Of a stretch of 64,000 bases of DNA, positions 3,311 to 56,899 are shown in pieces. Location: contig NC_090341.1 in the NCBI RefSeq assembly GCF_035084215.1, positions 51,522,001 through 51,586,000 on the forward strand, given 5' to 3'. The number at the start of each line of letters is the position of its first letter. Within the stretch, counting starts at the first letter, position 1. The notes beneath the pieces were generated by a model, which was not told the origin of the DNA, searched no databases, and saw nothing but the letters and a program-made list of their open reading frames with translations. This DNA is from Heptranchias perlo. Taxonomy: Eukaryota. The position numbers were made by a program, and so were the translations under genes.

Positions 3311-3952
3311 TCCCTATGTCCTATGTGTCTGAACCAGTTGATTCATCACCTGGTCCTTTGATAGAATGATTTCCTCTTGGATGCTGTGCTTCCCCTCGTG
3401 AATGCTGCTGTCTGAATGCCTTGGTCGTCTTCTCCTCGACTGGCTGACTGACGAGTGCTCTTTTCCTTATTACCGCTATGCTACAGTCACAACCCTCACA
3501 CTGTGCTCAAAAGGCATGAGATTAAATACCCTGGTGATGCATATTGCCGCCTGTAGTCTCCGCGTGGGTTTCCTGACAGGAGATCGATGGAACCCCCTAA
3601 GTAACGGCTAAAAATAGCCATATACGCCATTTTTCCAAAGTTCTGGTAGATGATTGGGGAGAACCCCGCAGAAATTCTGCTACAGGTTTACTTCTGTAGG
3701 TTCATTGTTGGACCCTCTGATCACTTGGGCTGTATCGACCAGCTCTGGCCCTTTCCCTTTGCCTCACAGGCCCAGACTACTGGGAGGAGAGATCTGAATA
3801 CCCAGCAGTACAGCTCCTTCCTGTCCCAGTACTGATGCTAGTGTCCCATGAAATGGAACCCCTCATTCCCACACCAGTCTTTCATTTTCTTTTTTTTAAT
3901 TCGTTCATGGGATGTGGGCGTCGCTGACGAGGCCAGCATTTATTGCCCATCC

Positions 3953-6877
3953 CTAATTGCCCTCGAGAAGGTGGTGGTGAGCCGCCTTCTTGAACCGCTG
4001 CAGTCCGTGTGGTGATGGTTCTCCCACAGTGCTGTTAGGAAGGGAGTTCCAGGATTTTGACCCAGCGACGATGAAGGAACGGCGATATATTTCCAAGTCG
4101 GGATGGTGTGTGACTTGGAGGGGAACGTGCAGGTGGTGTTGTTCCCATGCGCCTGCTGCTCTTGTCCTTCTAGGTGGTAGAGGTCGCGGGTTTGGGAGGT
4201 GCTGTCGAAGAAGCCTTGGCGAGTTGCTGCAGTGCATCCTGTGGATGGTGCACACTGCAGCCACAGTGCGCCGGTGGTGAAGGGAGTGAATGTTTAGGGT
4301 GGTGGATGGGGTGCCAATCAAGCGGGCTGCTTTATCTTGGATGGTGTCGAGCTTCTTGAGTGTTGTTGGAGCTGCACTCATCCAGGCAAGTGGAGAGTAT
4401 TCCATCACACTCCTGACTTGTGCCTTGTCGATGGTGGAAAGGCTTTGGGGAGTCAGGAGGTGAGTCACTCGCCGCAGAATACCCAGCCTCTGACCTGCTC
4501 TCGTAGCCACAGTATTTATATGGCTGGTCCAGTTCAGTTTCTGGTCAATGGTGACCCCCAGGATGTTGATGGTGGGGGATTCGGCGATGGTAATGCCGTT
4601 GAATGTCAAGGGGAGGTGGTTAGACTCTCTCTTGTTGGAGATGGTCATTGCCTGGCACTTATCTGGCGCGAATGTTACTTGCCACTTATGAGCCCAAGCC
4701 TGGATGTTGTCCAGGTCTTGCTGCATGCGGGCTTGGACTGCTTCATTATCTGAGGGGTTGCGAATGGAACTGAACACTGTGCAGTCATCAGCGAACATCC
4801 CCATTTCTGACCTTATGATGGAGGGAAGGTCATTGATGAAGCAGCTGAAGATGGTTGTGCCTAGGACACTGCCCTGAGGAACTCCTGCAGCAATGCCCTG
4901 GGGCTGAGATGATTGGCCTCCAACAACCACTACCATCTTCCTTTGTGCTAGGTATGACTCCAGCCACTGGAGAGTTTTCCCCCTGATTCCCATGGACTTC
5001 AATTTTACTAGGGCTCCTTGGTGCCACACTCGGTCAAATGCTGCCTTGATGTCAAGGGCAGTCACTCTCACCTCACCTCTGGAATTCAGCTCTTTTGTCC
5101 ATGTTTGGACCAAGGCTGTAATGAGGTCTGGAGCCGAGTGGTCCTGGCGGAACCCAAACTGAGCATCGGTGAGCAGGTTATTGGTGAGTAAGTGCCGCTT
5201 GATAGCACTGTCGACAACACCTTCCATCACTTTGCTGATGATTGAGAGTAGACTGATGGGGCGGTAATTGGCCGGATTGGATTTGTCCTGCTTTTTGTGG
5301 ACAGGACATACCTGGGCAATTTTCCACATTGTCGGGTAGATGCCAGTGTTGTAGCTGTACTGAAACAGCTTGGCTAGAGGCGCAGCTAGTTCTGGAGCAC
5401 AAGTCTTCAGCACTACAGCTGGGATGTTGTCGGGGCCCATAGCCTTTGCTGTATCCAGTGCACTCAGCCGTTTCTTGATATCACGTGGAGTGAATCGAAT
5501 TGGCCGAAGACTGGCTTCCGTGATGGTGGGGATATCGGGAGGAGGCTGAGATGGATCATCCACTCGGCACTTCTGGCTGAAGATGGTTGCAAACGCTTCA
5601 GCCTTGTCTTTTGCACTCACGTGCTGGACTCCGCCATCATTGAGAATGGGGATGTTTGCAGAGCCTCCTCCTCCCGTTAGTTGTTTAATTGTCCACCACC
5701 ATTCATGACTGGATGTGGCAGGACTGCAGAGCTTTGATCTGATCCGTTGGTTGTGGAATCGCTTAGCTCTGTCTATAGCATGTTGCTTCCGCTGTTTAGC
5801 ATGCATGTAGTCCTGAGTTGTAGCTTCACCAGGTTGGTACCTCATTTTTAGGTACGCCTGGTGCTGCTCCTGGCATGCTCTTCTACACTCCTCATTGAAC
5901 CAGGGTTGATCCCCTGGCTTGTTGGTAATGGTAGAGTGAGGAATATGCCGGGCCATGAGGTTACAGATTGTGGTGGAATACAATTCTGCTGCTGCTGATG
6001 GCCCACAGCGCCTCATGGATGCCCAGTTTTGTGCTGCTCGATCTGTTCTGAATCTATCCCATTTAGCACGGTGGTAGTGCCACACAACACGTTGGATGGT
6101 GTCCTCAGTGCGAAGACGGGACTTCATCTCCACAAGGACTGTGCAGTGGTCACTCCTACCAATACTGTCATGGACAGATGCATCTGCGACAGGTAGATTG
6201 GTGAGGACGAGGTCAAGTAAGTTTTTCCCTCGTGTTGGTTCGCTCACCACCTGCCGCAGGCCCAGTCTAGCAGCTATGTCCTTCAGGACTCGGCCAGCTC
6301 GGTCAGTAGTGGTGCTAACGAGCCACTCTTGGTGATGAACATTGAAGTCCCCCACCCAGAGTACATTTTGTGCCCTTGCTACCCTCAGTGCTTCCTCCAA
6401 GTGGTGCTCAACATGGAGGAGGACTGATTCATCAGCTGAGGGAGGGCGGTAGGTGGTAATCAGCAGGAGGTTTCCTTGCCCATGTTTGACCTGATGCCAT
6501 GAGATTTCATGGGGTCCAGAGTCAATGTTGAGGACTCCCAGGGCCACTCCCTCCTGACTGTATATCACTGTACCGCCACCTCTGGTGGGTCTGTCCTGCC
6601 GGTGGGACAGGACATACCCAGGGATGGTGATGGAAGAGTCTGGGACGTTGGCTGAAAGGTATGATTCTGTGAGTATGGCTATGTCAGGCTGTTGCTTGAC
6701 TAGTCTGTGGGACAGCTCTCCCAATTTTGGCACAAGTCCCCAGATGTTAGTAAGGAGGACCTTGCAGGGTCGACTGGACTTGGTGTTTTTTTGCCGTTGT
6801 CGTGTCCGGTGCCGAGTGGTCCGATGCCGGGTGGTCCGTCCGGTTTTATTCTTATTCTGACTTTTCGTAGCGAGATT
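3953..6877 (-). CDS. APE endonuclease-reverse transcriptase, open for 974 codons with no initiating AUG
   Basis: Frame opens after TAA at 6880-6878; Arg-rich leader, then LTNIWGL, LTESYL, YRPP, VGDFNVH, LDLV, SDH (APE), then NYRPISLL, QFGFR, LDIKAAFDRV, GVPQGSVLG, MFADD, LGVTID (RT). The ORF track start at 6733 is GTG; first ATG is at 6127. Confidence 0.9.
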   Translation of the reverse strand, partial: NLATKSQNKNKTGRTTRHRTTRHRTRQRQKNTKSSRPCKVLLTNIWGLVPKLGELSHRLVKQQPDIAILTESYLSANVPDSSITIPGYVLSHRQDRPTRGGGTVIYSQEGVALGVLNIDSGPHEISWHQVKHGQGNLLLITTYRPPSADESVLLHVEHHLEEALRVARAQNVLWVGDFNVHHQEWLVSTTTDRAGRVLKDIAARLGLRQVVSEPTRGKNLLDLVLTNLPVADASVHDSIGRSDHCTVLVEMKSRLRTEDTIQRVVWHYHRAKWDRFRTDRAAQNWASMRRCGPSAAAELYSTTICNLMARHIPHSTITNKPGDQPWFNEECRRACQEQHQAYLKMRYQPGEATTQDYMHAKQRKQHAIDRAKRFHNQRIRSKLCSPATSSHEWWWTIKQLTGGGGSANIPILNDGGVQHVSAKDKAEAFATIFSQKCRVDDPSQPPPDIPTITEASLRPIRFTPRDIKKRLSALDTAKAMGPDNIPAVVLKTCAPELAAPLAKLFQYSYNTGIYPTMWKIAQVCPVHKKQDKSNPANYRPISLLSIISKVMEGVVDSAIKRHLLTNNLLTDAQFGFRQDHSAPDLITALVQTWTKELNSRGEVRVTALDIKAAFDRVWHQGALVKLKSMGIRGKTLQWLESYLAQRKMVVVVGGQSSQPQGIAAGVPQGSVLGTTIFSCFINDLPSIIRSEMGMFADDCTVFSSIRNPSDNEAVQARMQQDLDNIQAWAHKWQVTFAPDKCQAMTISNKRESNHLPLTFNGITIAESPTINILGVTIDQKLNWTSHINTVATRAGQRLGILRRVTHLLTPQSLSTIDKAQVRSVMEYSPLAWMSAAPTTLKKLDTIQDKAARLIGTPSTTLNIHSLHHRRTVAAVCTIHRMHCSNSPRLLRQHLPNPRPLPPRRTRAAGAWEQHHLHVPLQVTHHPDLEIYRRSFIVAGSKSWNSLPNSTVGEPSPHGLQRFKKAAHHHLLEGN

Positions 6878-7060
6878 TTACAACTGAGTGGCTTGCTCGG
6901 CCATTTCAGAGGGCAATTAAGAATCAACCACATTGCTGTGGGTCTGGAGTCACGTATAGGCCAGACCGGGTAAGGATGGCAGGTTTCCTTCCCTGAAGGA
7001 CATTAGTGAACCAGATGGGTTTTTACGACAATCCGGTAGTTTCATGGCCACCATTACTGA
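6866..7060 (-). promoter_or_regulatory. Structured 5' UTR, candidate IGR-IRES-like element
   Basis: Stacked hairpins: AAGGA/UCCUU (6990-6972), GGUCUGG/CCAGACC (6967-6941), CCACA-GCAA-UGUGG (6941-6928), CUGA-aa-UGGC-[CGAGCAA]-GCCA-c-UCAG (6909-6884), then in-frame GCU at 6871-6869. Confidence 0.5.
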
Positions 7061-7134
7061 TACTAGTATTTTAATTCCAGATTTTTATTTAATTAATTGA
7101 ATTTAATTAATTAATTGAATTTTTTAATTCGCCA

Positions 7135-7227
7135 GCTGCCGTGGCAGGATTTGAACTCATGACTCTGGATTTTAGTCCAGGCCTCTGGATTACTAGTCCA
7201 GTAACATAACCACTATGCTACCGTACC
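7135..7227 (-). promoter_or_regulatory. tRNA(Thr-AGT)-like internal Pol III promoter forming the LINE 5' end
   Basis: A box TAGCATAGTGG (7220-7210), B box GTTCAAATCC (7156-7147), anticodon arm CTGGA-CTAGTAA-TCCAG followed by a degenerate duplicate TGGACTAAAATCCAG. Confidence 0.82.
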
Positions 7228-8685
7228 CGTTATTCCTGCTCCATTTATTCCTGTGCCAATTTGCATGTAGCTCTGGTAGTAATCTGGATATGACCACCCT
7301 CAAGGGCTTGCTTTTTAATTTAGCTCCTGATAATTCCCTCGGGCAGGACCACCTCCCTGTTCCTTCCTTTGTCATTGGTTCTGACATGGACTCGGACAAC
7401 TGATTCTTCACCCTCCCTTTCCAAGTTACTTTCCAGCTGCTCCTGATACCAGGTAGGAAACACACCCATCTGTATTCTCAATCACTACTGCAGAGTATAG
7501 AATCGCCTATAACTACCTTTCTATTCTGCTTCTCCACCCACCCCCTTGAACTGCCTCCTGCTCCATGGTGCGCATTGTGGCTATCTTCCCCGTAGTCTTT
7601 CGCCTTATCCTCACAGGTGGCAAGTTCATCGTACCTGTTGGACAGAACCAGATTCTGCAGTACCTTCTACCTGCTTCCAGTAGGTTCCCCTTACCCTGTT
7701 GACTCAGTCACACACTCCTCTTCCTGAGCCTTGACTTCTCCACATGGTGTGACTGGGTTCTGGAGTAAATTATCCAGACATTGCTCCCCCTCTCTGATGA
7801 GCTAGAGTGCGGGTTAGACACCAACACAACAACTCTGAGCCAGAGTGATTCAAGATAGAGACATTTCCTGCAGATGTGGTCATCCAGGAGAGTCTCACTG
7901 TCCACAAATTCCCACATACTGCAGTCCCAAAACACTGACTGTGCCGCTATTATCTACTCTGCAACTGCTATATAATCAATAAATAAATGTTTAATGCTTA
8001 CTGAATCGCCTTTAATGGTGAATTAGTTTTAGCTACCGCTCAGTTTATTAAATTTATCCTATTGGGTCTATTTACTAAAAGTAAACAGTTTGTTTTTACC
8101 GTTGCCTCTTAATTAATATTTTCAAGTTAAGTTGCCCCTTTAATTTTAACTATATAGTCAATTGAGGTTGGATAATAAATTAAACACTTAGCTTAAATTC
8201 TCGGGCTCTGCCACTCCTCCCTCTGCGTTGACCCCTTCGTTTGTTTGACCTCACCTGAAATCCTGGAAGAAACAGCTGAAAATGGCCATTTATGCCATTT
8301 CTCCAAGGTTTCTGCTAAAGTTATGGCAGGAGATTGGGCCGAACTCCCCACAAGTTTACTTCTGTTGGTTAATTGTTGGACCCTCTGGTCGCTTGGGCTG
8401 TTTCAGACAGCCCTTTGTCCCACTGGCCCAGACTACTGGGAGGACAGCAGGCCTCTGCCTTCTGTTGACTGTCCAAGTGCTGACTGACCTAGGGACGGAG
8501 AGATGGCCCTTTTATACCTTTTAAATTTCACTGACCAACTTTTTCTAGCTTCAAAGTTCAGTGGCCAGTTGAAAGGTTAACTGGGACATGCTAGTCCCTT
8601 CCAAAGGGCTAATCAGTTTTGATGGACGTGTGAGAGAAATTGCTGTCAATTTTCACATGTTCCGATTAGGCTGATGTTTCCTGAC

Positions 8686-15643: not shown

Positions 15644-16586
15644 CAGGCAATGCAGCGTGTGGCTGATCTCCAAGGCGTCCAGCTCTGCGTGCGTTAGAAC
15701 CACCTCGTGTGGCGGGCCCCCTCCGGTGCGTGCCCTTTCCCGGGCGTTCTTGCATCTCTTCTCCTGTCAAGGGAAAACACAGATGCGTGATTGAGTGATG
15801 ATTGCATTGTGAGACGCTTCAAGCATTGGTGTGGGTGGGTTGAGCGTGTGGGAGATGGATGGGAGGATGCGTGTGCCACATGCCCATCCCATTGTATGGG
15901 GATTGGGGTGTGTGGTAGTGTTCGAATGGGGACAGGGACGGTGGGTACGTGCAGGCACGGTGAGGATGATAGTTGAGTGGCTGTGAGGATTGATGCGGGA
16001 GCGCTGTGGTGGCAGTGCAGAAGGGGTTGTGAGGTGTTTGAGGTGATGTGGAAGACGGAGTGTGGGAGAATGCGTTAGTGTACTCACTTTGCCAGACCTA
16101 GTGAGATCATTGAATCTCTTGCGACACTGGATCCATGTTCTTGTGGTGTTGCCCCTGCTGCTAACCTCCGCGGCCACCTCCGCCCATGCCTTCCTGGTGG
16201 CGGAGGCAGGGCACTTCCTTCCATCGCTGGGGAACAACGTCTCCCTCCTCCTCCTTTCCCCACCCAGCAGCAGCTGGAGTGAGTGGTCAGAAAATCGTGG
16301 GGCAGCCTTACCCCTGGGGTGCTCCATGGTGTGCTACTTCTTGTTTGCAGCAGGAGGAGCATTGGTGGACTGCCCCTTTAAATAGAGCTCCACCATCACT
16401 CAGACGTCATTGCGCATGCGCAGGCCGCCGGCGCGCAGCTGAGCAGCGGAAAACCCGTAACCACAGCTTAATGACTTCAATTATCCTGTGATCGCGCGGG
16501 GGACGCATTCATTTCACCGGGCGCGTTACCCACGCGCCCGATAGCCCCCCCCGCCGGGAACCCGCAGGCCTGCTAACATCGGGCCC
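15642..16586 (-). mobile_element. Harbinger fragment carrying spliced Myb/SANT (NAIF1/MSANTD4-like) gene 5' part
   Basis: Exon 1 16327-16088 (APRFSD..AWAEVAAEV..QCRKRFNDL), GTGAGT donor, acceptor TTGACAG, exon 2 from 15763 (EKRCKNARERARTGGGP); TIR GGGCCCGATGTTAGCA at 16586-16571. Confidence 0.85.
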
Positions 16587-22118: not shown

Positions 22119-24365
22119 CGGGCTCAATTTTCAGATGTCCGAGCGGTGCGTTAGTGGCGGGGGGGGGGCTCTGAAAATTGGGGATTCCCGGGGCGGGTCT
22201 AGAGCCCGGCTCCAACCCGCCCACTTTCGGGTTCTCCAATGATGCGCTTAGATGCGCCCGCAGCCCCCGCATGCGGGACTCCCACCAGCAATTAAAGCTG
22301 GCGGGATGCCACTTATCAATTAATTTAATACTTCAGGTCGTTAGGAGACCTGATTGGGAGGATATTTTAGGAGGGGTGGGATTTTCCCCTGTACTGGGGG
22401 AAACACTCCCAGTTCAAATGGACATGTAGCAGCCACCAGCCTGTGGCAGCTGCAAAGGTCCATTTGACAGGTGGGGGGACCCTCACTCATTGCAGGAGGC
22501 CACTCTGTCACTTTGGACAAAGTTTGGCCTCCACCACCTCCTCCTAATGCTAAAATTCATAAACTTGCAACCTCAACCCCGGTGTGCAGACACATTTACC
22601 TACCTTGCGGACCCCCTCAAACGTACATCTTCCGGATGGGGGCCGCCGTAGCTGCAGTCATGACCTCCTCGGAGGGCGAACAGCCACGCCATCCACCTCT
22701 GACACATGGAGCTCCACAATACGGTGCTGTGACACATCCACCTGCACAGCAGGAGGGAGGGCAACCGCAGAGAGAGATGCGTCGCAGAGGGCACTACCCT
22801 CGCCACAGGGTCTACAGACCGAGGCTTAGCTTCCTGGACCTCTCTGAGGGAGCAGTGCACACGGAGGCTCAGAGTCATTCGACATGTAGTTGTGGACATC
22901 TGCAGCCTCCTTCATGCCGAGCTGCTCCCGGCTGACCCGAGCACTATCTTCTTACCTGTCGCTGTCAAAGTCACCACTGACCTCAACAACTTCTCCTCCG
23001 GATCCTTCCAGGGTGCCACCGGGGACATTGCCAATGTCTCTCAGTCGTCTGCACAAAAGAGCCCTGCAAATACACCTACACCCACTCTGCAGTGACACAA
23101 TGGGTGGTATCAGGTGTGGGTCTTCATGGTGATCCTCAGGAAAGGGCATTATTGCACAAACCAGACAAGATTTGCAAAGACATGGCAGTAGTGGTGATAA
23201 CAAATTTTTATGTTTTTTTGCAAAACAAACAAAAGTAAATCAAAGACATGACATTTTGTCTTACACCCTTGTGCATCCCCTTTGTGCTCACAAAACCTTT
23301 GTCTTATGTTTACGGGAACCCCTACGTGGTGCTATCCCTCTGGCTTCAGCAGAGGTAGTGGCAGGTTGCTCTTGTCCATGCCCAGACCGATGAGATGCTT
23401 TGCGCGGACGCCCTCTGGGTTTCGGTGCCCGTGAGGGCCCCTCCAAAGACTGCTCCACCTGCACCTGTGCAGGGGCAGACTCGACCACCTGGAGAGGAGG
23501 CAGCATTGCGGGTACTGGTTGAGAGGGGGGCAATAGGTGAGACGTGGGACGCTTTGAGTGGCGTCCCCACTTCCATGTCCCCTTTCACCATCATCCCTCT
23601 CCTGGCCCAGGCCCACATCACTCCTTCCACCCTGCTGGACGACAGTTTGGAGGACATGTGTGAAGCCTTGGAAGGGCAGTTGTAAGGTATCTGCCTTCCT
23701 GTTTAAGGCGGCAGAACGTTGCTCACCCTGACTCCGAACGGCCGTTGTCAGGGCCTCAACGGACTCATTGTTGAGCTGTGCTTGAAGCTCGATGGAGGCT
23801 AGCCTTTCCCCCATCACAGACATTCCCGCACCTACCCGCGACACTGTCTCAGAGATGCCCTCATGTCCCTGTGACACTAGCTCAGAGATACCCTCCTGTA
23901 CCTGTGCCACCATTCCACTCATGCAGGAGTTGGACTCCTCCATCCTCTGCGCGATTGTGGAGAGTGTGCGTGGCAACTGTTCCAGTACCTCAGCAATGTG
24001 CTGCTGGCCCTCGATGACTCTCCTTTTCATGGCTGGCCCCCAGGGTTCAGCGTCTGGGTCCAGCTGAGCAGAGCCTGGAGAAGAGTGCTCCCACCAATGC
24101 GGACTCTCCACGGCTGCCCCTGCCACCAGGGTCTGCTCGTGCTCACGTGCGTGGTCACTCACCATGTGCAAGCCCAACTAAGTGAGGATGGGGACCCACC
24201 GAGGTGTGTGTATCTGCGCTGATGGATGGCTCGCTCAGATGTGACGATGCACCCACAGAGGCCGGCAGGTCCACTGAGGAATCGCCCTCCGCAGTCACGG
24301 CGCTCGCAGATGGCCATGCAAGAGAACGCAAAGCAATATTAAGCATGTGGACAAATGTTGAGGTG
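22119..24365. mobile_element. Internally deleted Harbinger element inside the CR1
   Basis: GGGCTCAATTTTC terminus; HARBI1-like RVYRPRLSFLDLSE..LPVAVKVTT.LNNFSSGSFQ on +; Myb-gene C-terminal part (23332-24177) on -; homologous to 28262-30262. Confidence 0.8.
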
Positions 24366-24810
24366 CTGCAGATAGTATCCAAATAACTCTTCCCCCACTC
24401 TGATGCATCGCAGTGTCCGCAGCTCAGACTCCAGCCCAACAACTATGAGCCGAAGATCCTCGAGCTGCAGACACTTACTGCAGGTGTGGTTGCTCGGGAT
24501 CTCGCAAACTCCCCCATGCTGCAGTTACGACACACCACCTGCCCTGCCATCTTTATCTAACCTTGTTTTATATAATTAGTTTTTAAAAAGTTTTTATTCA
24601 ATGGATTATTTATAGTTTTATTAATCTAGTTAATAATCTAGTTTGTTATTAATTTAATAAAGTAGTAGCAGTTTCATTCTCCCAGCTCTTAATTTAACCC
24701 ACTGCCCTAACTTAGAGGGAAAGAATGCAGTAATACTTACCAGCCAATCACCTACCTGCCGTCCCATGACGTCACTCCTTGATTTTTTTTCCAGTCCCAC
24801 GGAATGTATC

Positions 24811-25545
24811 GCCCCCGCCCCGGTCCCCGACCGGACCCTCCCCCGTCTCCCCCGCCCCGGTCCCCGACCGGACCCTCCCCCGTCTCCCCCGCCCGGCCCC
24901 TCCCCCGTCTCCCCCGCCCCGGTCCCCGACCGGACCCTCCCCCGTCTCCCCCGCCCCGGTCCCCGACCGGACCCTCCCCCGTCTCCTCCGCCCCGGTCCC
25001 CGACCGGACCCTCCCCCGTCTCCCCCGCCCCGGTCCCCGACCGGAGTCTCCCCCGCCCCGGTCCCCGACCGGACCCTCCCCCGTCTCCCCCGCCCCGGTC
25101 CCCGACCGGACCCTCCCCCGTCTCCCCCGTCCCGGTCCCCGACCGGGCCTTCCCCCGTCTCCCCCGCCCCGGTCCCCGACCGGACACTCCCCCGTCTCCC
25201 CCGCCCCGGTCCCCGACCGGGCCCTCCCCCGTCTCCCCCGCCCCGGTCCCTGACCGGACCCTCCCCCGTCTCCCCCGCCCCGGTCCCTGACCGGACCCTC
25301 CCCCGTCTCCCCCGCCCCGGTCCCCGACCGGCCCCAACCCCGTCTCCCCCGCCCCAGTCCCCGACCGGACCCTCCCCCGCCCCGGTCCCTGACCGGCCCC
25401 AACCCCGTCTCCCCCGCCCCGGTCCCCGACCAGCCCCAACCCCGCCCCTCCACCGCCCCGGTCCCCGACCGGGCCCGCCCCCGCCGCGGTCCCCGACCGG
25501 ACCCTCCCCCACCCCGGTCCCCGACCGGGCCCGCCCCCGCCTCCG
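24811..25545 (-). repeat. 37-bp G-rich tandem array (~20 units, some truncated) in CR1 5' UTR
   Basis: Sense unit GAGACGGGGGAGGGTCCGGTCGGGGACCGGGGCGGGG; the 37-aa periodicity of the overlapping ORFs confirms the period. Confidence 0.95.
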
Positions 25546-25647
25546 CCACTCCTCGGGACTTTAGGCCTTCGATCCTCCCTTTTATTTACCTGCCTTCACT
25601 GCTCTAATCCCCGTTGAGGTCCGCTCCTGCCTCCACTGCTCCTCCTG

Positions 25648-27789: not shown

Positions 27790-30650
27790 TGTAGCCAGAG
27801 TAGGATGGGGCTGTTTGCTAGCATACAATTTATGGAATCTCGGTTTGATTTCGGAGAGTTTTAATCGCAAATCAGTCTCTATATTCAAGCGGCTTCTACA
27901 CAAGATTATTGAGGTAAAGTTGACAAGTGTTTCAATGGCTCTTTGGGACAATCGGGAACTCTTTTCTAATTGACAACTGGAACTGATCAAGAGGCTGGAC
28001 TTCAACATTATCTCAAAACAGAATCTTCAGGACCGCCGATCAAATTCTCTTTTAGACTCACGGCAATCTTGGACTTTGCTACAAAGTCCTCTGATTTTGA
28101 ACCCAGGGCAAATCCTGTGATTCACTTGCCCGTTTCAGGGAAATAGTCGCTGAATTTTGTGCAAAGCTGAGCCAGATGCTCCAGAATGACATCTTTTAAC
28201 TTCTAGGTCTGACATTTAACAGTCCATAATAACAAGACAATGTCGGGAGCATAGTTACATTGAGCTCGATTTTCGCACCCCCGAGCGGGTGCATTCGTGG
28301 CGGGGGGCTGCGAAAATCGGGGATTCCCGGGCGGGTCTGGAGCCCGGCTCCAACCCGCCCACTTCCGGGTTCCCTAGTGACGCGCTGACATGCGCGCGCA
28401 GCCCCCGCATGCGGGACTCCCGCCGGCAATTAAAGCCGACGGGTTGCCATTTAAAGCAATCGTTGAGGCATTTCAGGTCGTTCAGAGACCTGATTAACAT
28501 GACATTTTAGGAGGGGTGGAATTTTGCAATGAACTGGGACTGTTTCCCGTACTGGGGGAAACACTCCCAGTTCAAATGGACGTGTTGCAGCCATCAGCCT
28601 GTGGCAGCTGTAAAGGTCCATTTGACAGGTGGGGTGGGGGGGGGAGACCCTCACTCATTGCAGGAGGCCACTCAGTCACTTTGGACAAAGTTTAGCCACC
28701 ACCCTCCTCCTAACAATAAAATTCACCAACTTGCACACTTACCCTGGATTGCAGACATATTTACCTACCTTGCGGACCCCGTCATGCGTACATCTTCTGG
28801 ATGGGGGCCGCCGTAGCTGCAGTCATGACCTCCTCGGAGGACGAACAGCATCACCAGCCTTGCCGGCCACGCTGTCCACCTCTGACGCGTGGAGCTCCAC
28901 AACACAGTGCTGTAACACATCCACCTGCACAGCAGGAGGGAGGGCAACGGCAGAGAGAGATGCGTCGCAGAAGGCACTACCCTCGCCACAGGGTCCACAG
29001 ACCGAGGCTCAGCTTCCTGGACCTCTCTGAGCAGCATTGCACACGGAGGCTCAGAGTCACTCGACATGTAGTCGTGGACATCTGCAGCCTCCTTCATGCC
29101 GAGCTGCTCCCGGCTGGCCTGAGCACCATCTTCTTACCTGTCGCTTTCAGAATCACCACTGCCCTCAACAACTTCTCCTACGGATCCTTCCAGGGTACCA
29201 CCGGGGACATCGCCGATGTCTCTCAGTCGTCTGCACAAAAGAGCCCTGCAAATACACCTACACCCACTCTGCAGTGACACAATGGGTAGCATCAGTTGTG
29301 GGTCTTCATAGTGATCCTCAGGAAAGGGCATTATTGCACAAACCAGACAAGATTCGCAAAGACGTGGCAGTAGTGGTGACAATATAATAGGTTATGTGAG
29401 TTGATCAGAAATTAAATATAAGTAAAAACCATGACAAACCCTCAAACACCCTTGTGCATCCCCTTCATGCTCACAACACGTTTGCCTTACGCTTCCTATT
29501 GCACATATGTGATGCATGCCCTGTGGCTGCAGCACAGGTAGTGGCAGGTTGAGTGAGGCTGACTGTGAAAGAGATGCATGAGAAGGTGAGAATGAGATAG
29601 AACCATGAGATTGTATGAGGATTGGGTTAAGTGGTAGTGGCGGGATGAGTACTGGCGAGGTGAGTAAGTGCAGGTAAGATGAGGATGAACTTTGAGTGGG
29701 TGTGAGGGGTGATGTGACAGAGTAGTGTTGGCAGTGCAGAAGGAGATGTGGGGTGGGGGCGGTGATGTGGCAGACGGAGTGTAGGGGGTGTACTCACTTC
29801 GGCTGGTGCGCGATATGTTGGTGGTGCAGGTGACCTCCTGTGCCACCTTGAGCCAGGCCTTCTTGGTGGCAGAGGCAGGCCACTTCCTCCCGCCCGCCGG
29901 GGAGAAGATCTCTGTCCTCCCCCTCCTCGTCACCCCATCCAATAAGAACTGGAGTGCGGCATCATTAAACCTGGGAGCAGCCTTTCCCCTGGGCTGCTCC
30001 ATGCTGTAATTTTTCCTATTTCCTGCAGCATCAGTCAGTGGAGGACTGCCCCTTTAAATAGGGCTCCTCCAGCTGACAGCCTATGCTGCGCATGTGCAGT
30101 CCGCCCGCCGTGCAGCTTACCAGCGCGAAACCCGGAAGCAAAGGTAAGTGGCTCCAATTAGCCTGCGATTCCGTGCGGAGCAGACTGATTTCACCGGGCG
30201 CGTTACCCACGCGCCCAGTCGACCCCCCGCTGCGAACCCGCCGCCCTGCTAATATCGGGCCCATTGTCTTGCAGTACATCGCTACTCCATGGCTAAAGTT
30301 TATTGGTAAAGCTCTGTATTTTCCTGTGCATGATGAAAATGTTACAGTTCTTACTTTGCAAAGAAAGATCAAATTCATTGAGCCTCTCAAATATGTTGGC
30401 CAATAATGCCTGGAACTGCTGGTTGAGGAAATGATGAAGTGGTGATGCACTGGTTTCTTGCTGCCCTGAATGAGAACTTCAGCACAAACAACACCTCACG
30501 GTCGAGAATTTTCATCAGAACCAGTAAACATGAATCCCAAGTCCGGTCAGGAAGGATTGTATTTTGTATTTTTCCTTTGCCCGACTCTACCTGTTCCTTC
30601 CAACATCCTCAACTTTTAGACAACGCTCTTTTCATTCACAATTACCAAAC
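27790..30650 (-). pseudogene. Internally deleted hAT-Charlie (ZBED5/SCAND3-like) transposase, split by Harbinger
   Basis: GFMFTG..RP*GVVCAEVL..KP, ANIFERLNEFDLSLQ..IQSFTNKL, DVILEHLAQLCTKFSDYFPE, RSRLNIETDLRLKLSEIKP..SKQPHP. Confidence 0.8.
28262..30262. mobile_element. Non-autonomous Harbinger with both ends
   Basis: TIRs GAGCTCGATTTTCGCA / TGCTAATATCGGGCCC, 3-bp TSD ATT; HARBI1-like N-terminus on + (28801-29277), Myb/SANT exon on - (from 30002). Confidence 0.88.
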
Positions 30651-35550: not shown

Positions 35551-36409
35551 CGGGGTGCCATTGATTACACGCATATAGCCGTGCTCCACATCTCAACTTG
35601 GCCATCTTTATGAACAGAAAGGGGTTCCACTCCCTCATTGTGCAGCTGGTGTGTGACCACACGCAGCGCATCATGACCTGTGCCAAGTTGGAGATGGACT
35701 CCTCCATGCCCCTTGACATTGTGCGCAGGCTTTCTGGAGACTTTCCTGTGCACCAAGCATTTGATGGTGTACACCCATCAGCCATCTTCTGTAGCCTGGC
35801 CCATCAATGTCCTCATCTGACTCCTCTGCAGCAAAACCATTGTGCGACCTCGCCCCCTCTGGCAAGCTGGCACCTGTGATATCCGTTCCCCCCCGTCCCG
35901 GCTCCTGCGCACTTGTGCCCGATATCTCGCCACGCGCTGATCCCTCCTCTAACCAAGCCTCTAAAGGACGTGCAGTGTCAGTATCTGAACTGGTGGATGC
36001 GAGTGTCAGATCAAGTGACGGTGTGACTTCATTGTCAGTATCCTCCTCCTCTGACGGTGCCGGCTCCAGTTCTTGGGTATCTGCAATGACAAAGGGAGAT
36101 GGGCATCAGAAAAGATTGTGGGATGAGGGAGAAGTGGGAAACGAAAAGGAGGATTAGGTATGCAGAGACCCCCTTTGTCGGGACCTCCAGCACTGCCAGT
36201 AGCCATGGCCACAGCAACGGCCTGCCCAATGATGCGCAGCACCGTCTCCTCCAGGGGGGGGTGACATGTCCTCCCTCGAGTCTTTCGGTCTGCCTGCTGT
36301 TATGCGCCACCTTCTCCTGTAAGACACAAGGAAATGAGTCAGTGAGTATCCTGCAATATGTTTGGTTGATCTGCCTATCATGGTCGAATAGCTGCCAGTG
36401 TGTGTGACT

Positions 36410-38165
36410 TTTTTTTTATTCGTTCATGGGATGTGGGCATCGTTGGCGAGACCAGCATTTATTGCCCGTCCCTAATTGACCTTGAGAAGGTGGTGGTGAG
36501 CCACCTTCTTGAACCGCTGCAGTCTGTGTGGTGAAGGTTCTCCTACAGTGCTGTTAGGAAGGGAGTTCCAGGATTTTGACCCAGCGACAATGAAGGAACA
36601 GCGATATATTTCCAAATCGGGATAGTCTGTGACTTGGAGGGGAACGTGCAGGTGGTGTTGTTCCCTTGTACCTGCTGCTCTTGTCCTTCTAGGTGGTAGA
36701 GGTCGCGGGTTTGGGAGGTGCTGTCGAAGAAGCCTTGGCGAGTTGCTGCAGTGCATCCTGTGGATGGTACACACTGCAGCCACTGTGCACCGGTGGTGAA
36801 GGCAGTGAATGTTTAGGGTGATGGATGGGGTGCCAATCAAGCGGGCTCCTTTGTCCTGGATGGTGTCGAGCTTCTTGAGTGTTGTTGCAGCTGCACTCAT
36901 TCAGGCAAGTGGAGAGTATTCCATCACACTCCTGACTTGTGCCTTGTAGATTGTGGAAAGGCTTTGGGGAGTCAGTAGGTGAGTCACTTGCCGCAGAATA
37001 CCCAGCCTCTGGCCTGCTCGTGTGGCCACAGTATTTATATGGCTCGTCCAGTTAAGTTTCTGGTCAATGGTGACCCCCAGGATGTTGATGGTGGGGGATT
37101 CGGCGATGGTAATACCGTTGAATGTCAAGGGGTGGTGGTTAGACTCTCTCGTTGGAGATGGTCATTGCCTGGCACTTTTCTGGCGCGAATGTTACTTGCC
37201 ACTTATGAGCCCAAGCCTGGATGTTGTCCAGGTCTTGCTGCATGCGGGCTCGGACTGCTTCATTATCTGAGGGGTTGCGAATGCAACTGAACACTGTGCA
37301 ATCATCAGCGAACATCCCCATTTCTGACCTTATGATGGAGGGAAGGTAATTGATAAAGCAGCTGAAGATTTTTTGGCCTAGGACACTGCCTTGAGGAACT
37401 CCTGCAGCAATGTCCTGGGGCTGAGATGATTGGCCACCAGCAACCATTACCATCTTCCTTTGTGCTAGGTATGACTCCAGCCACTGGAGAGTTTTCCCCG
37501 TGATTCCCATTGACTTCAATTTTACTAGGGCTCCTTGGTGCTACACTCGGTCAAATGCTGCCTTGATGTCAAGGGCAGTCACTCTCACCTCACCTCTGGA
37601 ATTCAGCTCTTTTGTCCATGTTTGGACCAAGGCTGTAATGAGGTCTGGAGCCGAGTGGTCCTGGCGGAACCCAAACTGAGCATCGGTGAGCAGGTTATTG
37701 GTGAGTAAGTGCCGCTTGATAGCACTGTCGACGACACCTTCCATCACTTTGCTGATGATCGAGAGTAGACTGATGGGGCGGTAATTGGCCAGATTTTGTC
37801 CTGCTTTTTGTGGACAGCACATACCTGGGCAATTTTCCACATTGTCGGGTAGATGCCAGTGTTGAAGCTGTACTGGAACAGTTTGGCTAGAGGCGCAGCT
37901 AGTTCTGGAGCACAGGTCTTCGGCCCTACATCCGGGATGTTGTCGGGGCCCATAGCCTTTGCTGTTTCCAGTGCACTCAGCCGTTTCTTGACATCACGTG
38001 GAGTGAATCGAATTGGCTGAAGACTGGCTTCTGTGATGGTGGGGATATCGGGAGGAGGCTGAGATGGATCATCTACTCGCCACTTCTGGCTGAAGATGGT
38101 TGCAAACGCTTCAGCCTTGTCTTTTGCACTCACGTGCTGGACTCCGCCATCGTTGAGGATGTTTG
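36410..38165 (-). mobile_element. 5'-truncated copy of the tRNA-headed LINE family
   Basis: Colinear with 3890-5658, poly(A) tail, several stops/frameshifts. Confidence 0.95.
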
Positions 38166-51105: not shown

Positions 51106-51856
51106 ATGTAAGGAATCTTACAACACCAGGTTATAGTCCAACTGTTTTATTTGAAAATCACAAGCTTTCGGAGGCTTTCTCCTTCGTCAGGTGAGCGAGT
51201 GTGGGATTCCATGGAAGGTTACCGCATTTATAGTCAAAGAACAATACCTGGTGATTACAGATAATCTTTCCAACTGCCAGTTGTCAAGGCAATCAAAGTG
51301 TTCAGACAGAGTGATGTTACCTACAGGACCACCGAATACACAAACGGCCAGAACACAAGACAGACAGAGAGAGAGAAACATCTGAAAGGAAGAGAAAGAC
51401 AGAGAATGACCCGTTGTGTTAAAAACAGATAACTTTTTTTCGCTGGTGGAGTTACGTGTAGCGTGACATGAATCCAAGATCCCGGTTGAGGCCGTCCTCA
51501 TGGGTGCGGAACTTGGCTATCGATTTCTGTTCGACGATTTTGCGTTGTCGTGTGTCTCGAAGGCCGCCTTGGAGAACGCTTACCCGAAGGTCGGTGGCTG
51601 AATGTCCTTGACTGCTGAAGTGTTCCCCGACTGGGAGGGAACCCTCCTGTCTGGCGATTGTTGCGCGGTGTCCGTTCATCCGTTTTCGCAGCGTCTGCAT
51701 GGTCTCGCCAATGTACCATGCTCCGGGGCATCCTTTCCTGCAACGTATGAGGTAGACAACGTTGGCCGAGTCACAGGAGTATGAACCATGTACCTGGTGG
51801 GTGGTGTCCTCTCGTGTGATGGTGGTGTCTGTGTCGATGATCTGGCATGTCTTGCA
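51106..51856 (-). mobile_element. Penelope-like element 3' fragment with GIY-YIG endonuclease
   Basis: SCDSANVVYLIRC..WYIGETMQTLRKRMNGHR..PVGEHFS..RKIVEQKSIAKF..GLNRD; terminal repeat with hammerhead. Confidence 0.9.
51159..51193 (-). ncRNA. Minimal hammerhead ribozyme, second copy
   Basis: Reverse complement identical to 49379-49413. Confidence 0.8.
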
Positions 51857-52426
51857 GAGTAATTTTAACCAAATAAGTTGTCTTTGAACCCTCAAGTACA
51901 TCATTCCTTTCCAGTGCTGTAATAGTATCTTTGATCAATACTGCCATCTCCCCTCTACTTCCTTCCCAATCTTTCCTGAATATAACAACAACTTGCATTT
52001 ACATAGCAACTTTAATGCAGCAAAACATCCCAAGGTGCATCATAGGAGCGATTGCCAAATAACATTTGACACCTAGCCACATAGAGATATTAGGACAGGT
52101 GACCAAAAGCTTGGTCAAAGCGTTGGGTTTTAAGCAGCGTCTTAAAGGAGGGCAGAGAGGTTTAGGAAGGGAATTCCAGAGCTTGGGGCTTCGGGCATGG
52201 CCGCCAGTGGTGGAGCAAAAATAATCGGGGATGCATATAAGGACAGAATTGGAGGAGTGCAGAGATCTCGGAGGGTTGTAGGGCTGGAGGAAGATGCAGA
52301 GATAGGGAGGAGTGAGGCCAAGGAGGGAATTGTAAACAAAGGTGAGAATTTTAAAAATGAGGTGTTGCCGGACCGGGAGCCATTGTAGGTCAGCGAGCAC
52401 AGGGGTGATGGGTGAACGGGACTTAA

Positions 52427-53239: not shown

Positions 53240-53828
53240 TTGGTGCGAGTTGGGAAATGGGCAGCAGAGTTTTGCACGAGCTCAAGTTTATGGAGAGTGC
53301 AAGGTGGGAGGCTGGCCAGGAGAGCATTGGAATAGTCGAGTCTAGAGGTAACATAGGCAAATTTTAAGGCTTTCAGCAGCGAATGAAGCTCAGGTAGGGG
53401 AGGATACGGCCGATGTTATGGAGGTGGAAGTAGGTGGTCTTGCTGATGGAGAGGATATGGGGTCAGAAGCTCATCTCAGGATCAAATAGGGCGCCATGGT
53501 TGTGAACAGTCTGGTTCAGCCTCAGACATTGGCCAGGGAGAGGGATGGAGTCGGTGGTTAGGGAACGGAGTTTGTGGCGGGGACCGAAGACAATGGCTTT
53601 GCTCTTCCCAATATTTAGTTGGAGGAAATTTCTGCTCATCCAGTACTGGATGTCGGACAAGCACCATGTCACATCAGAGGCAGTGGAGGGTCGAGAGAGG
53701 TGGTGAGGTAGAGCTGGGTGTCATCAGCGTACATGTGGAACCTGACGTCGTGTTTTCAGATGGTGTCACCGAGGAGCAGCATGTAGATGAGAAATACGAG
53801 GTGCCCAAGGATAGATCCTTGGGGGACT

Positions 53829-54209
53829 TTTTTTTTCGTTCATGGGATGTGGACATCGCTGGCAAAGCCAGCATTTATTGCCCATCCCTAATTGCCCTTG
53901 AGAAGGTGGTGGTGAGCCGCCTTCTTGAACCCCTGCAGTCCGTGTGGTGAAGGTTCTCCCACAGTGCTGTTAGGTAGGGAGTTCCAGGATTTTGACCCAG
54001 CGACGATGAAGGTTCGGCGATATATTTCCAAGTCGGGATGGTGTGTGACTTGGAGGGGAACGGGCAGCTGGATTTGTTCCCATGTGCCTGCTGCCCTTGT
54101 CCTTCTAGGTGGTAGAGGTTGCGGGTTTGGGAGGTGCTGTCGAAGAAGCCATGGCGAGTTGCTGCAATGCATCCTGTGGATAGTACACGCTGCAGCCACG
54201 GTGCGCCGT
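53829..54209 (-). mobile_element. Short 3' copy of the tRNA-headed LINE family inserted in L2
   Basis: Matches 3890-4273; GACT duplicated at 53825-53828 and 54210-54213. Confidence 0.92.
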
Positions 54210-55364: not shown

Positions 55365-56846
55365 CTTTTTTTTTATGCGTTCATGGGATGTGGGCGTCGC
55401 TGGCGAGGCCGGCATTTATTGCCCATCCCTAATTGCCCTTGAGAAGGTGGTGGTGAGCCGCCTTCTTGAACCGCTGCAGTCTGTGTGGTGACGGTTCTCC
55501 CATAGTGCTGTTAGGAAGGGAGTTCCAGGATTTTGACCCAGCGACGATGAAGGAACGGCAATACATTTCCAAGTCGGGATGGTGTGTGACTTGGAGGGGA
55601 ATGTGCAAGTGGTGTTGTTCCCGTGTGCCTGCTGCTCTTGTCCTTCTAGATGGTAGAGGTCGCGGGTTTGGGAGTTGTTGTCAAAGAAGCCTTGGCGAGT
55701 TGCTGCAGTGCATCCTGTGGGTGGTACACACTGCAGCCACTGTGCGCCGGTGGTGAAGGGAGTGAATGTTTAGGGTGGTGGGTGGGGTGCCAATCAAGCG
55801 GGCTGCTTTGTCCTGGATGGTGTCGAGCTTCTTGAGTGTTGTTGGAGCTGCACTCATCCAGGCAAGTGGAGAGTATTCCATCACACTCCTGACTTGTGCC
55901 TTGTAGATGGTGCAAAGGCTTTGGGGAGTCAGGAGGAGAGTCACTCGCCACAGAATACCCAGCCTCTGACCTGCTCTCGTAGCCACGGTATTTATATGGC
56001 TCGTCCAGTTAAGTTTCTGGTCAATGGTGACCCCCAAGATGTTGATGGTGGGGGATTCAGCGATGGTAATGCTGTTGAATGTCAAGGGGAGGCGACTAGA
56101 CTCTCTCTTGTTGAAGATGGTCATTGCCTGGCACTTGTCTGACGCGAATGCTACTTGCCACTTATCAGCCCAAGCCTGGATGTTGTCCAGGTCTTGCTGC
56201 ATGCGGGTTCGGACTGCTTCATTATTTGAGGGGTTGCGAATGGAACTGAACACTGTGCAGTCATCAGCGAACATCCCCATTTTTGACCTTATGATGGAGG
56301 GAAGGTTATTGATGAAGCAGCTGAAGATGGTTGGGCCCAGTACACTGCCCTGAGGAACTCCTGCAGCAATGCCCTGGGGCTGAGATGATTGGCTTCCAAC
56401 AGCCACTACCATCTTCCTTTGTGCTAGGTATGACTCCAGCCACTGGAGAGCTTTCCCCCTGATTCCCATTAACTTCAATTTTACTGGGGCTCCTTGGTGC
56501 CACACTCGGTCAAATGCTGCCTTGATGTCAAGGGCAGTCACTCTCACCTCACCTCTGGAATTCAGCTCTTTTGTCGATGTTTGGACCAAGGCTGTAATGA
56601 GCTTTGGAGCCGAGTGGCCCTGGCGGTACCCAAACTAAGCACCGGCGAGCAGGTTATTGGTGAGTAAGTGCCGCTTGATAGCACTGTCGACGACACCTTC
56701 CATCACTTTGCTGATGATTGGGACTAGACTGATGGGGCGGTAATTGGTCGGATTGGATTTGTCCTGCTTTTTGTGGACAGGACATATCTGGGCAATTTTC
56801 CACATTGTCGGGTAGATGCCAGTTTTGTAGCTGTACTGGAACAGCT
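55365..56846 (-). mobile_element. 5'-truncated copy of the tRNA-headed LINE family
   Basis: ORF 55681-56589 nearly identical to the RT of 3953-6877; poly(A) tail; inserted in a degenerate Myb-like repeat also seen at 40685-40850. Confidence 0.95.
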
Positions 56847-56899
56847 TGTCCCTTTCCTCCCTTCCACCCCGTGGGAGCCAAAATGCTGAAAACCCTCTT

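Follow-up and report, generated by a model that had tools for sequence, protein, structure and literature searches.

A tRNA-derived head, an AUG-less reading frame and the shedding of SINEs in an elasmobranch Zenon LINE: a candidate coding retrotransposon of RNA polymerase III

Introduction

Short interspersed elements (SINEs) are defined by their use of RNA polymerase III (Pol III) for transcription, long interspersed elements (LINEs) by transcription by RNA polymerase II (Pol II) together with their coding capacity; in vertebrates Pol III terminates at runs of four T (T4), and its RNAs are uncapped. The subject of this study is a full-length LINE of the elasmobranch Zenon family, found in a 64,000-nt stretch of the genome of Heptranchias perlo (contig NC_090341.1, positions 51,522,001 to 51,586,000; hereafter the window, whose numbering is used throughout), in which a tRNA-derived head with A and B boxes precedes a long coding frame without a start AUG. 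R2, RTE and Ingi/L1Tc are, like the present element, retrotransposons without long terminal repeats (non-LTR) that have just one open reading frame (ORF), thought to be translated from uncapped RNA; their 5' ends are ribozymes like that of hepatitis delta virus, whereas here there is an A/B-box head and no ribozyme match.

The closest described elements are the Zenon LINEs of five elasmobranchs reported by Stuart et al. 2026 (PMC13343379), all of which lack ORF1 and end in poly-A, and none of which, according to that paper, is present in a repeat repository. They share with the element of the window a single APE-RT ORF, the absence of ORF1, the poly-A end, a length of about 3.3 kb and a near-identical leader, and we place it in the same family, with which the whale shark CR1-Zenon repeats (bioRxiv 10.1101/443036) are also grouped. 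Bov-tA, SINE2-1_ACar and CoeSINE4 (Kojima 2015, 2018) are tRNA SINEs based on bipartite LINEs, short head-plus-tail elements sharing both ends of a LINE; in SINEs of the Bov-tA type, however, the head is joined to a non-coding, deleted LINE, whereas here the coding parent itself bears it. The Persaeus short internally deleted element of a lepidopteran Zenon (PMC6740152) also shares both ends with its LINE, but as described it has neither a tRNA head nor a Pol III promoter.

An earlier note, made from the letters of this DNA, had proposed that a tRNA-like A/B-box head, a structured leader of about 350 nt, a 974-codon APE-RT frame lacking a start AUG and an A tail form one element, without ORF1 and without TTTT on its sense strand. 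This layout was confirmed, with the element on the minus strand (Table 1). The note further regarded four of the features as independent, which they are not, because a missing ORF1 and a poly-A tail are general traits of Zenon; its label of the leader as IRES-like, after the internal ribosome entry site (IRES), is an interpretation and not an observation. Its wider reading, of a retrotransposon whose uncapped Pol III mRNA would be translated by way of an internal RNA structure, is supported in part.

Results

The tRNA-derived head is an integral part of a known family

The supplement of PMC13343379 was compared with the element by eye over the first 400 nt of each consensus row, at 30 of 41 places, and all statements below about consensus rows or species refer to this comparison. 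All seven elasmobranch Zenon rows (one each from white shark, whale shark, catshark and stingray, and three from dogfish) open with the same head and leader, and a 16-nt leader motif was found in six rows of the supplement, every one of them an elasmobranch Zenon. The Zenon rows of hagfish and coelacanth lack the head, and two of these three have T4 or longer runs near the start. The family is therefore already known, and the lack of ORF1 and the A tail are traits of its clade; its architecture is undescribed in that paper, as the head, the absence of T4, the AUG-less start and the spawning of SINEs are not described there, and the words tRNA, promoter, polymerase and start codon do not occur in its main text. 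In the literature searched, which did not extend to Repbase, Dfam or most subscription journals, we found no earlier description of a coding LINE headed by a tRNA promoter.

The element has the Zenon traits of a single APE and RT ORF, no ORF1 and a poly-A tail, and its best protein relatives are single ORFs of 930-990 aa with 33-38% identity. In a tree of 50 rows, built without a labelled Zenon reference, it falls in a clade of 14 (support 99/98) that is separate from the CR1 element of the window. Fragments 80-84% identical to the element lie inside gene models of three shark genera. A search of the PDB returned only the RTs of L1 and R2, and a leader motif had no match in viral contigs. The closest protein relatives (P0001, P0005) are found on contigs of 3,433 nt, which is the size of this element.

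A DNA search of the genome gave 8,657 candidates, of which the best 40 (97-100% identical) were scored; 36 of these begin within nt 1-23 of the element. Because this search is biased toward full-length copies, a second sample was drawn on an exact ORF-start motif (3,299 matches), taking the first 16 in chromosome order: 12 extend to nt 12 or beyond toward the 5' end (11 under a stricter alignment), 4 end within the leader, and there is no alternative 5' end among the 16. An exact head motif, with 5,942 matches in the genome, lies 415-462 nt upstream in 28 of 48 ORF-motif matches. The leader passes into the same coding start in 87 of 90 distinct young loci (hand count), a frame of at least 969 codons is open in 17 of 30 full copies, and the flanking DNA varies from copy to copy. 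Since an exact 18-nt tail motif has 45,108 matches, the majority of copies are 5'-truncated or short. Target-site duplications are not regular: among 30 copies the flanks match over 0-8 nt in 28 and over 13 and 35 nt in the other two, and this copy has none. In sequencing data, contig ends accumulate at 7228 in two organisms, A and D (38 and 68 contigs, respectively), and read runs from five organism labels contain at least 70% of the sampled words; run X23 gave 172 matches, mostly partial, and run X24 none. The expectation of the earlier note that full-length copies start at the tRNA head is thus borne out, with neither an upstream ORF1 nor another 5' end, in a design common to sharks and a ray: the head is a conserved and integral part of the family, present in thousands of young copies, and not a chance junction.

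Some further properties of the copies were recorded. The window holds three more Zenon copies (36408-38161, 53828-54208 and 55365-56848, minus strand), which are 5'-truncated, 93-95% identical and free of T4. About 6 of 90 young copies (for example G000:C1 5197243, 11645672 and 20160708, G000 being this genome) read GCT TAA at the proposed start of translation, which may represent either a non-coding lineage of full-length elements or slippage that has happened repeatedly. At locus L070 the copy is 5'-truncated with a piece of the leader inverted at the junction. Throughout loci L001-L076 the T of CTAG and CTAC contexts has changed to G, C or A far oftener than other sites; this TpA mutation hot spot is seen for instance at element positions 36, 166, 333, 416, 529, 962 and 1855.

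The A and B boxes and the scarcity of T runs

Over 73 copies only 5 of 739 bases in the A box and 6 of 759 in the B box differ from the majority, against 2% in the whole head. The A box is present in all five species, with a full match in six of the seven rows; the B box is intact in the four sharks and one base short in the stingray consensus, while the stretch between the boxes diverges. In 30 of the 54 copies whose head start fitted the search pattern the same three bases precede tRNA +1, which is what transcription started by Pol III would leave. The Rfam tRNA model matches 7220-7165 with 22.3 bits (E 0.046), below its gathering score of 29, and ARAGORN calls no tRNA in the window.

Oligo-T is the terminator of Pol III (PMC4494074). 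The 3345 nt of the element contain no T4 on the sense strand and 36 on the opposite strand; T4 is also absent from the sense strand of the three older copies that the window holds (together 3619 nt), from 23 of 30 full copies and from the first 400 nt of the seven elasmobranch Zenon rows, and the neighbouring CR1 has 14. When the codons were shuffled, runs of three or more T proved depleted (6 observed against 13.3±2.6, P 0.001); runs of A, C and G were not, and neither was the CR1 control. Relatives were compared at 122 loci, of which 36 were dropped for want of a 500-codon frame. The T4 count in the remaining 86 homologous ORFs ranges from 0 to 42 and is 1 or less in just two. Four of the 86 have an equal or lower T3 z-score, and for this reason the absolute absence of T4 is more telling than the z-score. 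A regular expression that does find the head here recovered an A/B-box pair with none of the 86 ORFs, many of which lie on contigs without upstream DNA. Two distant relatives, L158 (3099 nt) and L090, have one T4 and none, respectively; L158, whose 5' end is missing, has 20% T and groups weakly with the element (89/87). Both are candidates for a wider lineage of Pol III type.

Several observations weigh against transcription by Pol III or qualify the signs of it. Relative to the element's own codon use the lack of T4 is weak (2.3 expected, P about 0.07), the T3 depletion is equalled in the four homologues just mentioned, and an AATAAA stands 41 nt ahead of the A tail. Two runs labelled as RNA consist of contigs, possibly of DNA, and are strongly 3'-biased; runs X6 and X18 are uninformative as to start, strand and level. 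It may be asked whether the functional RNA is made by Pol II, from an internal promoter or by read-through from the flanks, the head being a relic, an RNA structure or a processing signal and the low T content having another cause. LINEs are generally taken as Pol II units (PMC5786205), and such an origin would agree with the AATAAA, with a T-arm in the head that lacks a tRNA-like fold, and with the composition of L158, headless as seen, which is poor in T as well. It does not explain why both boxes persist in five species with a divergent stretch between them, nor why the depletion is limited to runs of T; the flanks differ among copies, the three extra 5' bases misfit a cut made exactly at tRNA +1, and a 5' rod of −60 kcal/mol together with seven upstream ATGs would impede scanning. 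Pol III SINE RNAs bearing AATAAA are, moreover, known (PMC8466645). On the sequence evidence we consider that the element is probably transcribed by Pol III and that a Pol II origin of the functional RNA is unlikely.

A reading frame without an AUG

The first methionine of the ORF is residue 251, behind the APE domain, and the question arises whether the preceding codons are used. Within aa 1-250 the ratio of nonsynonymous to synonymous changes is 126:53 for private changes and 3:7 for those in at least 5 of 57 copies (P 0.013); over the whole ORF in 30 copies, CpG sites excluded, it is 211:108 against 11:19 for shared changes (P 0.002). The four kinds of indel seen in the N-terminal extension all have lengths divisible by 3, and the catalytic columns of APE are invariant among copies. 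These patterns indicate that the frame upstream of Met251 is translated and under purifying selection. The closest homologue opens with MATKK at the site where the frame of the element reads ATKS.

Upstream of the ORF start there are seven ATGs; a single one of them (6904), 27 nt away from the ORF, shares its frame, and in this copy a stop closes it. A TAA comes next in 5,684 exact matches; for the other 1,598, a TAG does so in 69 of the 100 listed, so that by estimate one or two stops stand behind this ATG in about 93% of all 7,282 exact matches. In the oldest subfamily it is mostly GTG, with ATG in about 1 in 10 among the 100 of 117 listed, and in the whale shark row the upstream ATG is out of frame. 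Between the TAA and the APE domain the only near-cognate codons are ACG, which is not conserved, and AAG. In four of the five species GCT shares the frame of the coding N-terminus, and the stingray row can be read from GCT into APE with no in-frame ATG. Two results run counter to a start without AUG: in 31 of the 100 listed copies without TAA the frame is open from the upstream ATG into the ORF, and GCT is out of the coding frame in the three rows from dogfish, which also contradict one another.

An alternative is that a Pol III transcript is translated from an AUG, either from ATG 6904 with read-through of the stop or from an upstream ORF (uORF) of 77 codons in the +1 frame, which begins at 6933 and overlaps the ORF start, by frameshifting or reinitiation. 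AUG-independent reinitiation is known for ORF2 of L1. In support of this alternative, ATG 6904 stands in a strong context and leads openly into the ORF in the minority of copies just given, and a +1-frame ATG is present in six of the seven rows from other species. The prevalence of stops behind ATG 6904 is, however, difficult to reconcile with it; the variable base belongs to the many mutable TA sites, and TAG is found in every row of another species with an intact hairpin. As to the uORF, no slippery heptamer was found in the +1 register, the uORF terminates prematurely in the stingray row and has a shifted position in that of the whale shark, and the second +1 ATG is missing from copies of this family. 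We therefore regard an AUG start as improbable, and a start at a codon other than AUG appears likely. Taken jointly, a Pol III transcript, a non-AUG start and internal initiation from a structured leader form the combination that we somewhat favour.

Folding of the leader

The leader measures 353 nt between the 5' end and the 974-codon ORF, and the claim that it is structured holds, as regards extra stability, for its first half only. Nucleotides 8-45 are predicted to pair with nt 152-197 as a 32-pair rod of −60 kcal/mol, in which the two common polymorphisms exchange A-U and G.U, and the folding energy of nt 4-200 lies well below that of shuffled sequences (z −5.9). The antisense strand folds nearly as well (z −5.3), so that energy alone is no proof of a role of the RNA. 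In the body of the leader, one pair of helix 6993-6968 varies among 71 copies (A-U in 43, G-C in 23, G.U in 2, A.C in 3), which amounts to one lineage event; between species one pair alternates among A-U, G.U and G-C and a second among C-G, U.G and U-A, while a third is broken in two species.

The final hairpin has, in the oldest subfamily, a perfect stem under an anticodon-like loop of 7 nt, the centre of which is complementary to the GCTA found 9-10 nt beyond the hairpin. Hairpin and GCU(A) are kept in five species; the loop and GCTA are fixed in these and in subfamilies of three ages (GCTAC in 93 of 100 rows), with a linker between them that varies. This arrangement recalls the type 6 IRESs of viral intergenic regions (IGRs), which start without AUG at or beside a GCU next to a 3' hairpin that mimics an anticodon, and whose length is 126-205 nt against 165 nt here (PMC10275262, PMC10516663). 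In the viral IRESs the GCU follows the pseudoknot, whereas here GCU(A) would itself be a paired strand, and neither the pseudoknots PKII and PKIII nor the L1.1 motif of type 6 was found by our search, which used no pseudoknot predictor. The occurrence of IGR-type IRESs in non-LTR elements was raised as a possibility by Luke et al. 2013 (PMC3894237), and we advance the likeness as a hypothesis of similar working, not of membership.

Several results stand on the other side. Nucleotides 195-370 are no stabler than shuffled sequences (z −0.4). The loop-codon pair showed no compensatory change, and of 126 copies with a mutated loop most are uncompensated (one, at locus L065, fits compensation, probably by chance); 26 of 73 copies, this one among them, differ at the loop base that would form the fourth pair; and a complement of this kind, noticed post hoc, is 2-6% likely by chance. 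The element has no IRES or ribozyme match in Rfam, and the loop motifs of type 6 are absent, apart from one match, which the majority of the family lacks. A pseudoknot between loop and GCU(A), comparable to PKI of the dicistrovirus IGR IRESs, is thus possible, though less likely than not. Two other ideas about the leader were rejected: membership of the MetaSINEs, DeuSINEs or UCON3 SINEs, as the sequences of their conserved central domains given in PMC7245038 are unlike the leader by eye, and a signature of RNA modification at the loop, the variable base being one of many mutable TA sites.

Birth of SINEs by internal deletion

Exact matches in which the last hairpin of the leader is fused to the 3' end within 55 nt number 34 + 519, so that the prediction of the earlier note that internal deletion would yield SINEs has come true many times over. 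The junctions are diverse, carry the linker of the young, the middle or the old subfamily, and in some cases retain the first codons of the ORF; diversity and subfamily linkers together set the direction as from LINE to SINE. Certain junctions recur, a sign of amplification of their own. Of 72 distinct loci of the oldest subfamily about 57 are deletions of this kind, 31 of which break within one base of GCTAC (hand count), and 12 loci run on into a homologous ATG-free N-terminus; here the search pattern conceals earlier breakpoints, and recurrent junctions are not independent. In the reads, the tail is connected to 6879-6907 by 8 of the 15 joints with the best support among 466. A leader RNA with a protected 3' edge at GCUAC would explain this clustering of breakpoints. 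With tRNA SINEs (SINE2) the element shares the A/B-box head; the shortness and the lack of coding capacity are found in its deletion derivatives and not in the element itself.

Other elements in the window

The remaining features of the window are listed at the end of Table 1. Three frames that look like the Myb/SANT-like ORF (29496-30053, 22468-22935 and 28720-29277) have no Pfam match, and we take these and the ORF itself to be the remains of a Harbinger-type transposon. The frame at 51452-51934 (minus strand), also without a Pfam match, resembles the GIY-YIG C-terminus of a Penelope-type element.

Table 1. Features of the Zenon element and of other elements in the window
Feature	Position	Strand	Remarks
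Full-length elasmobranch Zenon LINE copy, 3345 nt	7230-3886	minus	leader as in the 5' ends of published Zenon consensuses
tRNA-derived head	7230-7131	minus	Rfam alignment; tRNA +1 at 7227, three additional 5' bases; AGT at the anticodon position
Duplicated anticodon arm	7181-7165	minus	within the head
A box	7220-7210	minus	perfect
B box	7156-7148	minus	perfect; 54 nt past the A box
Segment pairing with 5' half of head	7079-7034	minus	predicted 32-pair rod, 5 G.U pairs; would mask the tRNA fold
Leader body	7033-6917	minus	conserved; short helices, including 6993-6968 with compensatory changes
Hairpin with 7-nt anticodon-like loop	6916-6878	minus	loop 6899-6893; in-frame ATG 6904-6902; TAA 6880-6878 at its end
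GCTA, complement of majority loop sequence	6871-6868	minus	GCT in ORF frame; putative pairing; proposed start region and SINE-breakpoint hot spot
Single ORF, 974 codons stop-to-stop	6877-3953	minus	basic N-terminal extension, APE, RT
APE, aa 44-247	about 6748-6137	minus	
RT, aa 529-777	about 5293-4547	minus	
First Met of ORF, aa 251	6127-6125	minus	ATG
3' stem-loop	3953-3902	minus	AATAAA inside, 3944-3939
A tail	3897-3886	minus	
Canonical CR1, near-complete	14428-10126	minus	GDSL esterase ORF1 14428-13478, ORF2 broken; T-rich, served as control
Myb/SANT-like ORF	15767-16333	minus	Pfam PF13873
GC-rich tandem array	24654-25595		several open frames

Discussion

That the element is a chance SINE-LINE junction, or a non-autonomous chimera mobilised by another LINE, can be dismissed as already contradicted by the data: chimeras produced by template switching are common (PMC4494074) and the few young copies reading GCT TAA would have a closed frame, but the leader enters the same coding start at nearly all young loci, the frame is open over almost its whole length in more than half of the full copies, shared changes bear the mark of purifying selection and the same structure recurs in five species.

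These results can be brought together in the following scheme. Before the split of sharks and rays, an autonomous Zenon LINE with one ORF would have gained a head of tRNA-SINE type, which it kept as its own promoter. TFIIIC and Pol III would read the A and B boxes and produce an uncapped RNA of 3.3 kb, whose first 190 nt may fold as a rod and so keep the tRNA shape out of reach of processing, and whose next 165 nt may draw ribosomes internally. Translation would then begin without AUG at or just past the GCU (6871-6869); the simplest route, which we put forward with reserve, is that the anticodon-like loop pairs with GCU(A), as in PKI of the dicistrovirus IGR IRESs. The APE-RT protein would bind the 3' stem-loop and copy the RNA by target-primed reverse transcription, and jumps from the 3' end to the end of the leader would give rise to ready-made SINEs. 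As a whole, the picture of a Pol III-transcribed coding retrotransposon with an initiator-free, tRNA-mimicking IRES, conserved in sharks and rays and shedding SINEs, that is, of LINE and SINE in one unit, is a tentative one, with the odds leaning somewhat against it in its complete form.

If the scheme is correct, the element provides a natural Pol III mRNA of 3.3 kb and possibly the first host-encoded IRES of the IGR type, and a compact single-protein retrotransposon that combines Pol III with an IRES would be of interest for RNA-templated gene insertion. It would also mean that an abundant and young vertebrate LINE with a conserved tRNA promoter breaks the divide between LINEs and SINEs, and that there is a direct route for the birth of SINEs that come with a matching partner LINE.

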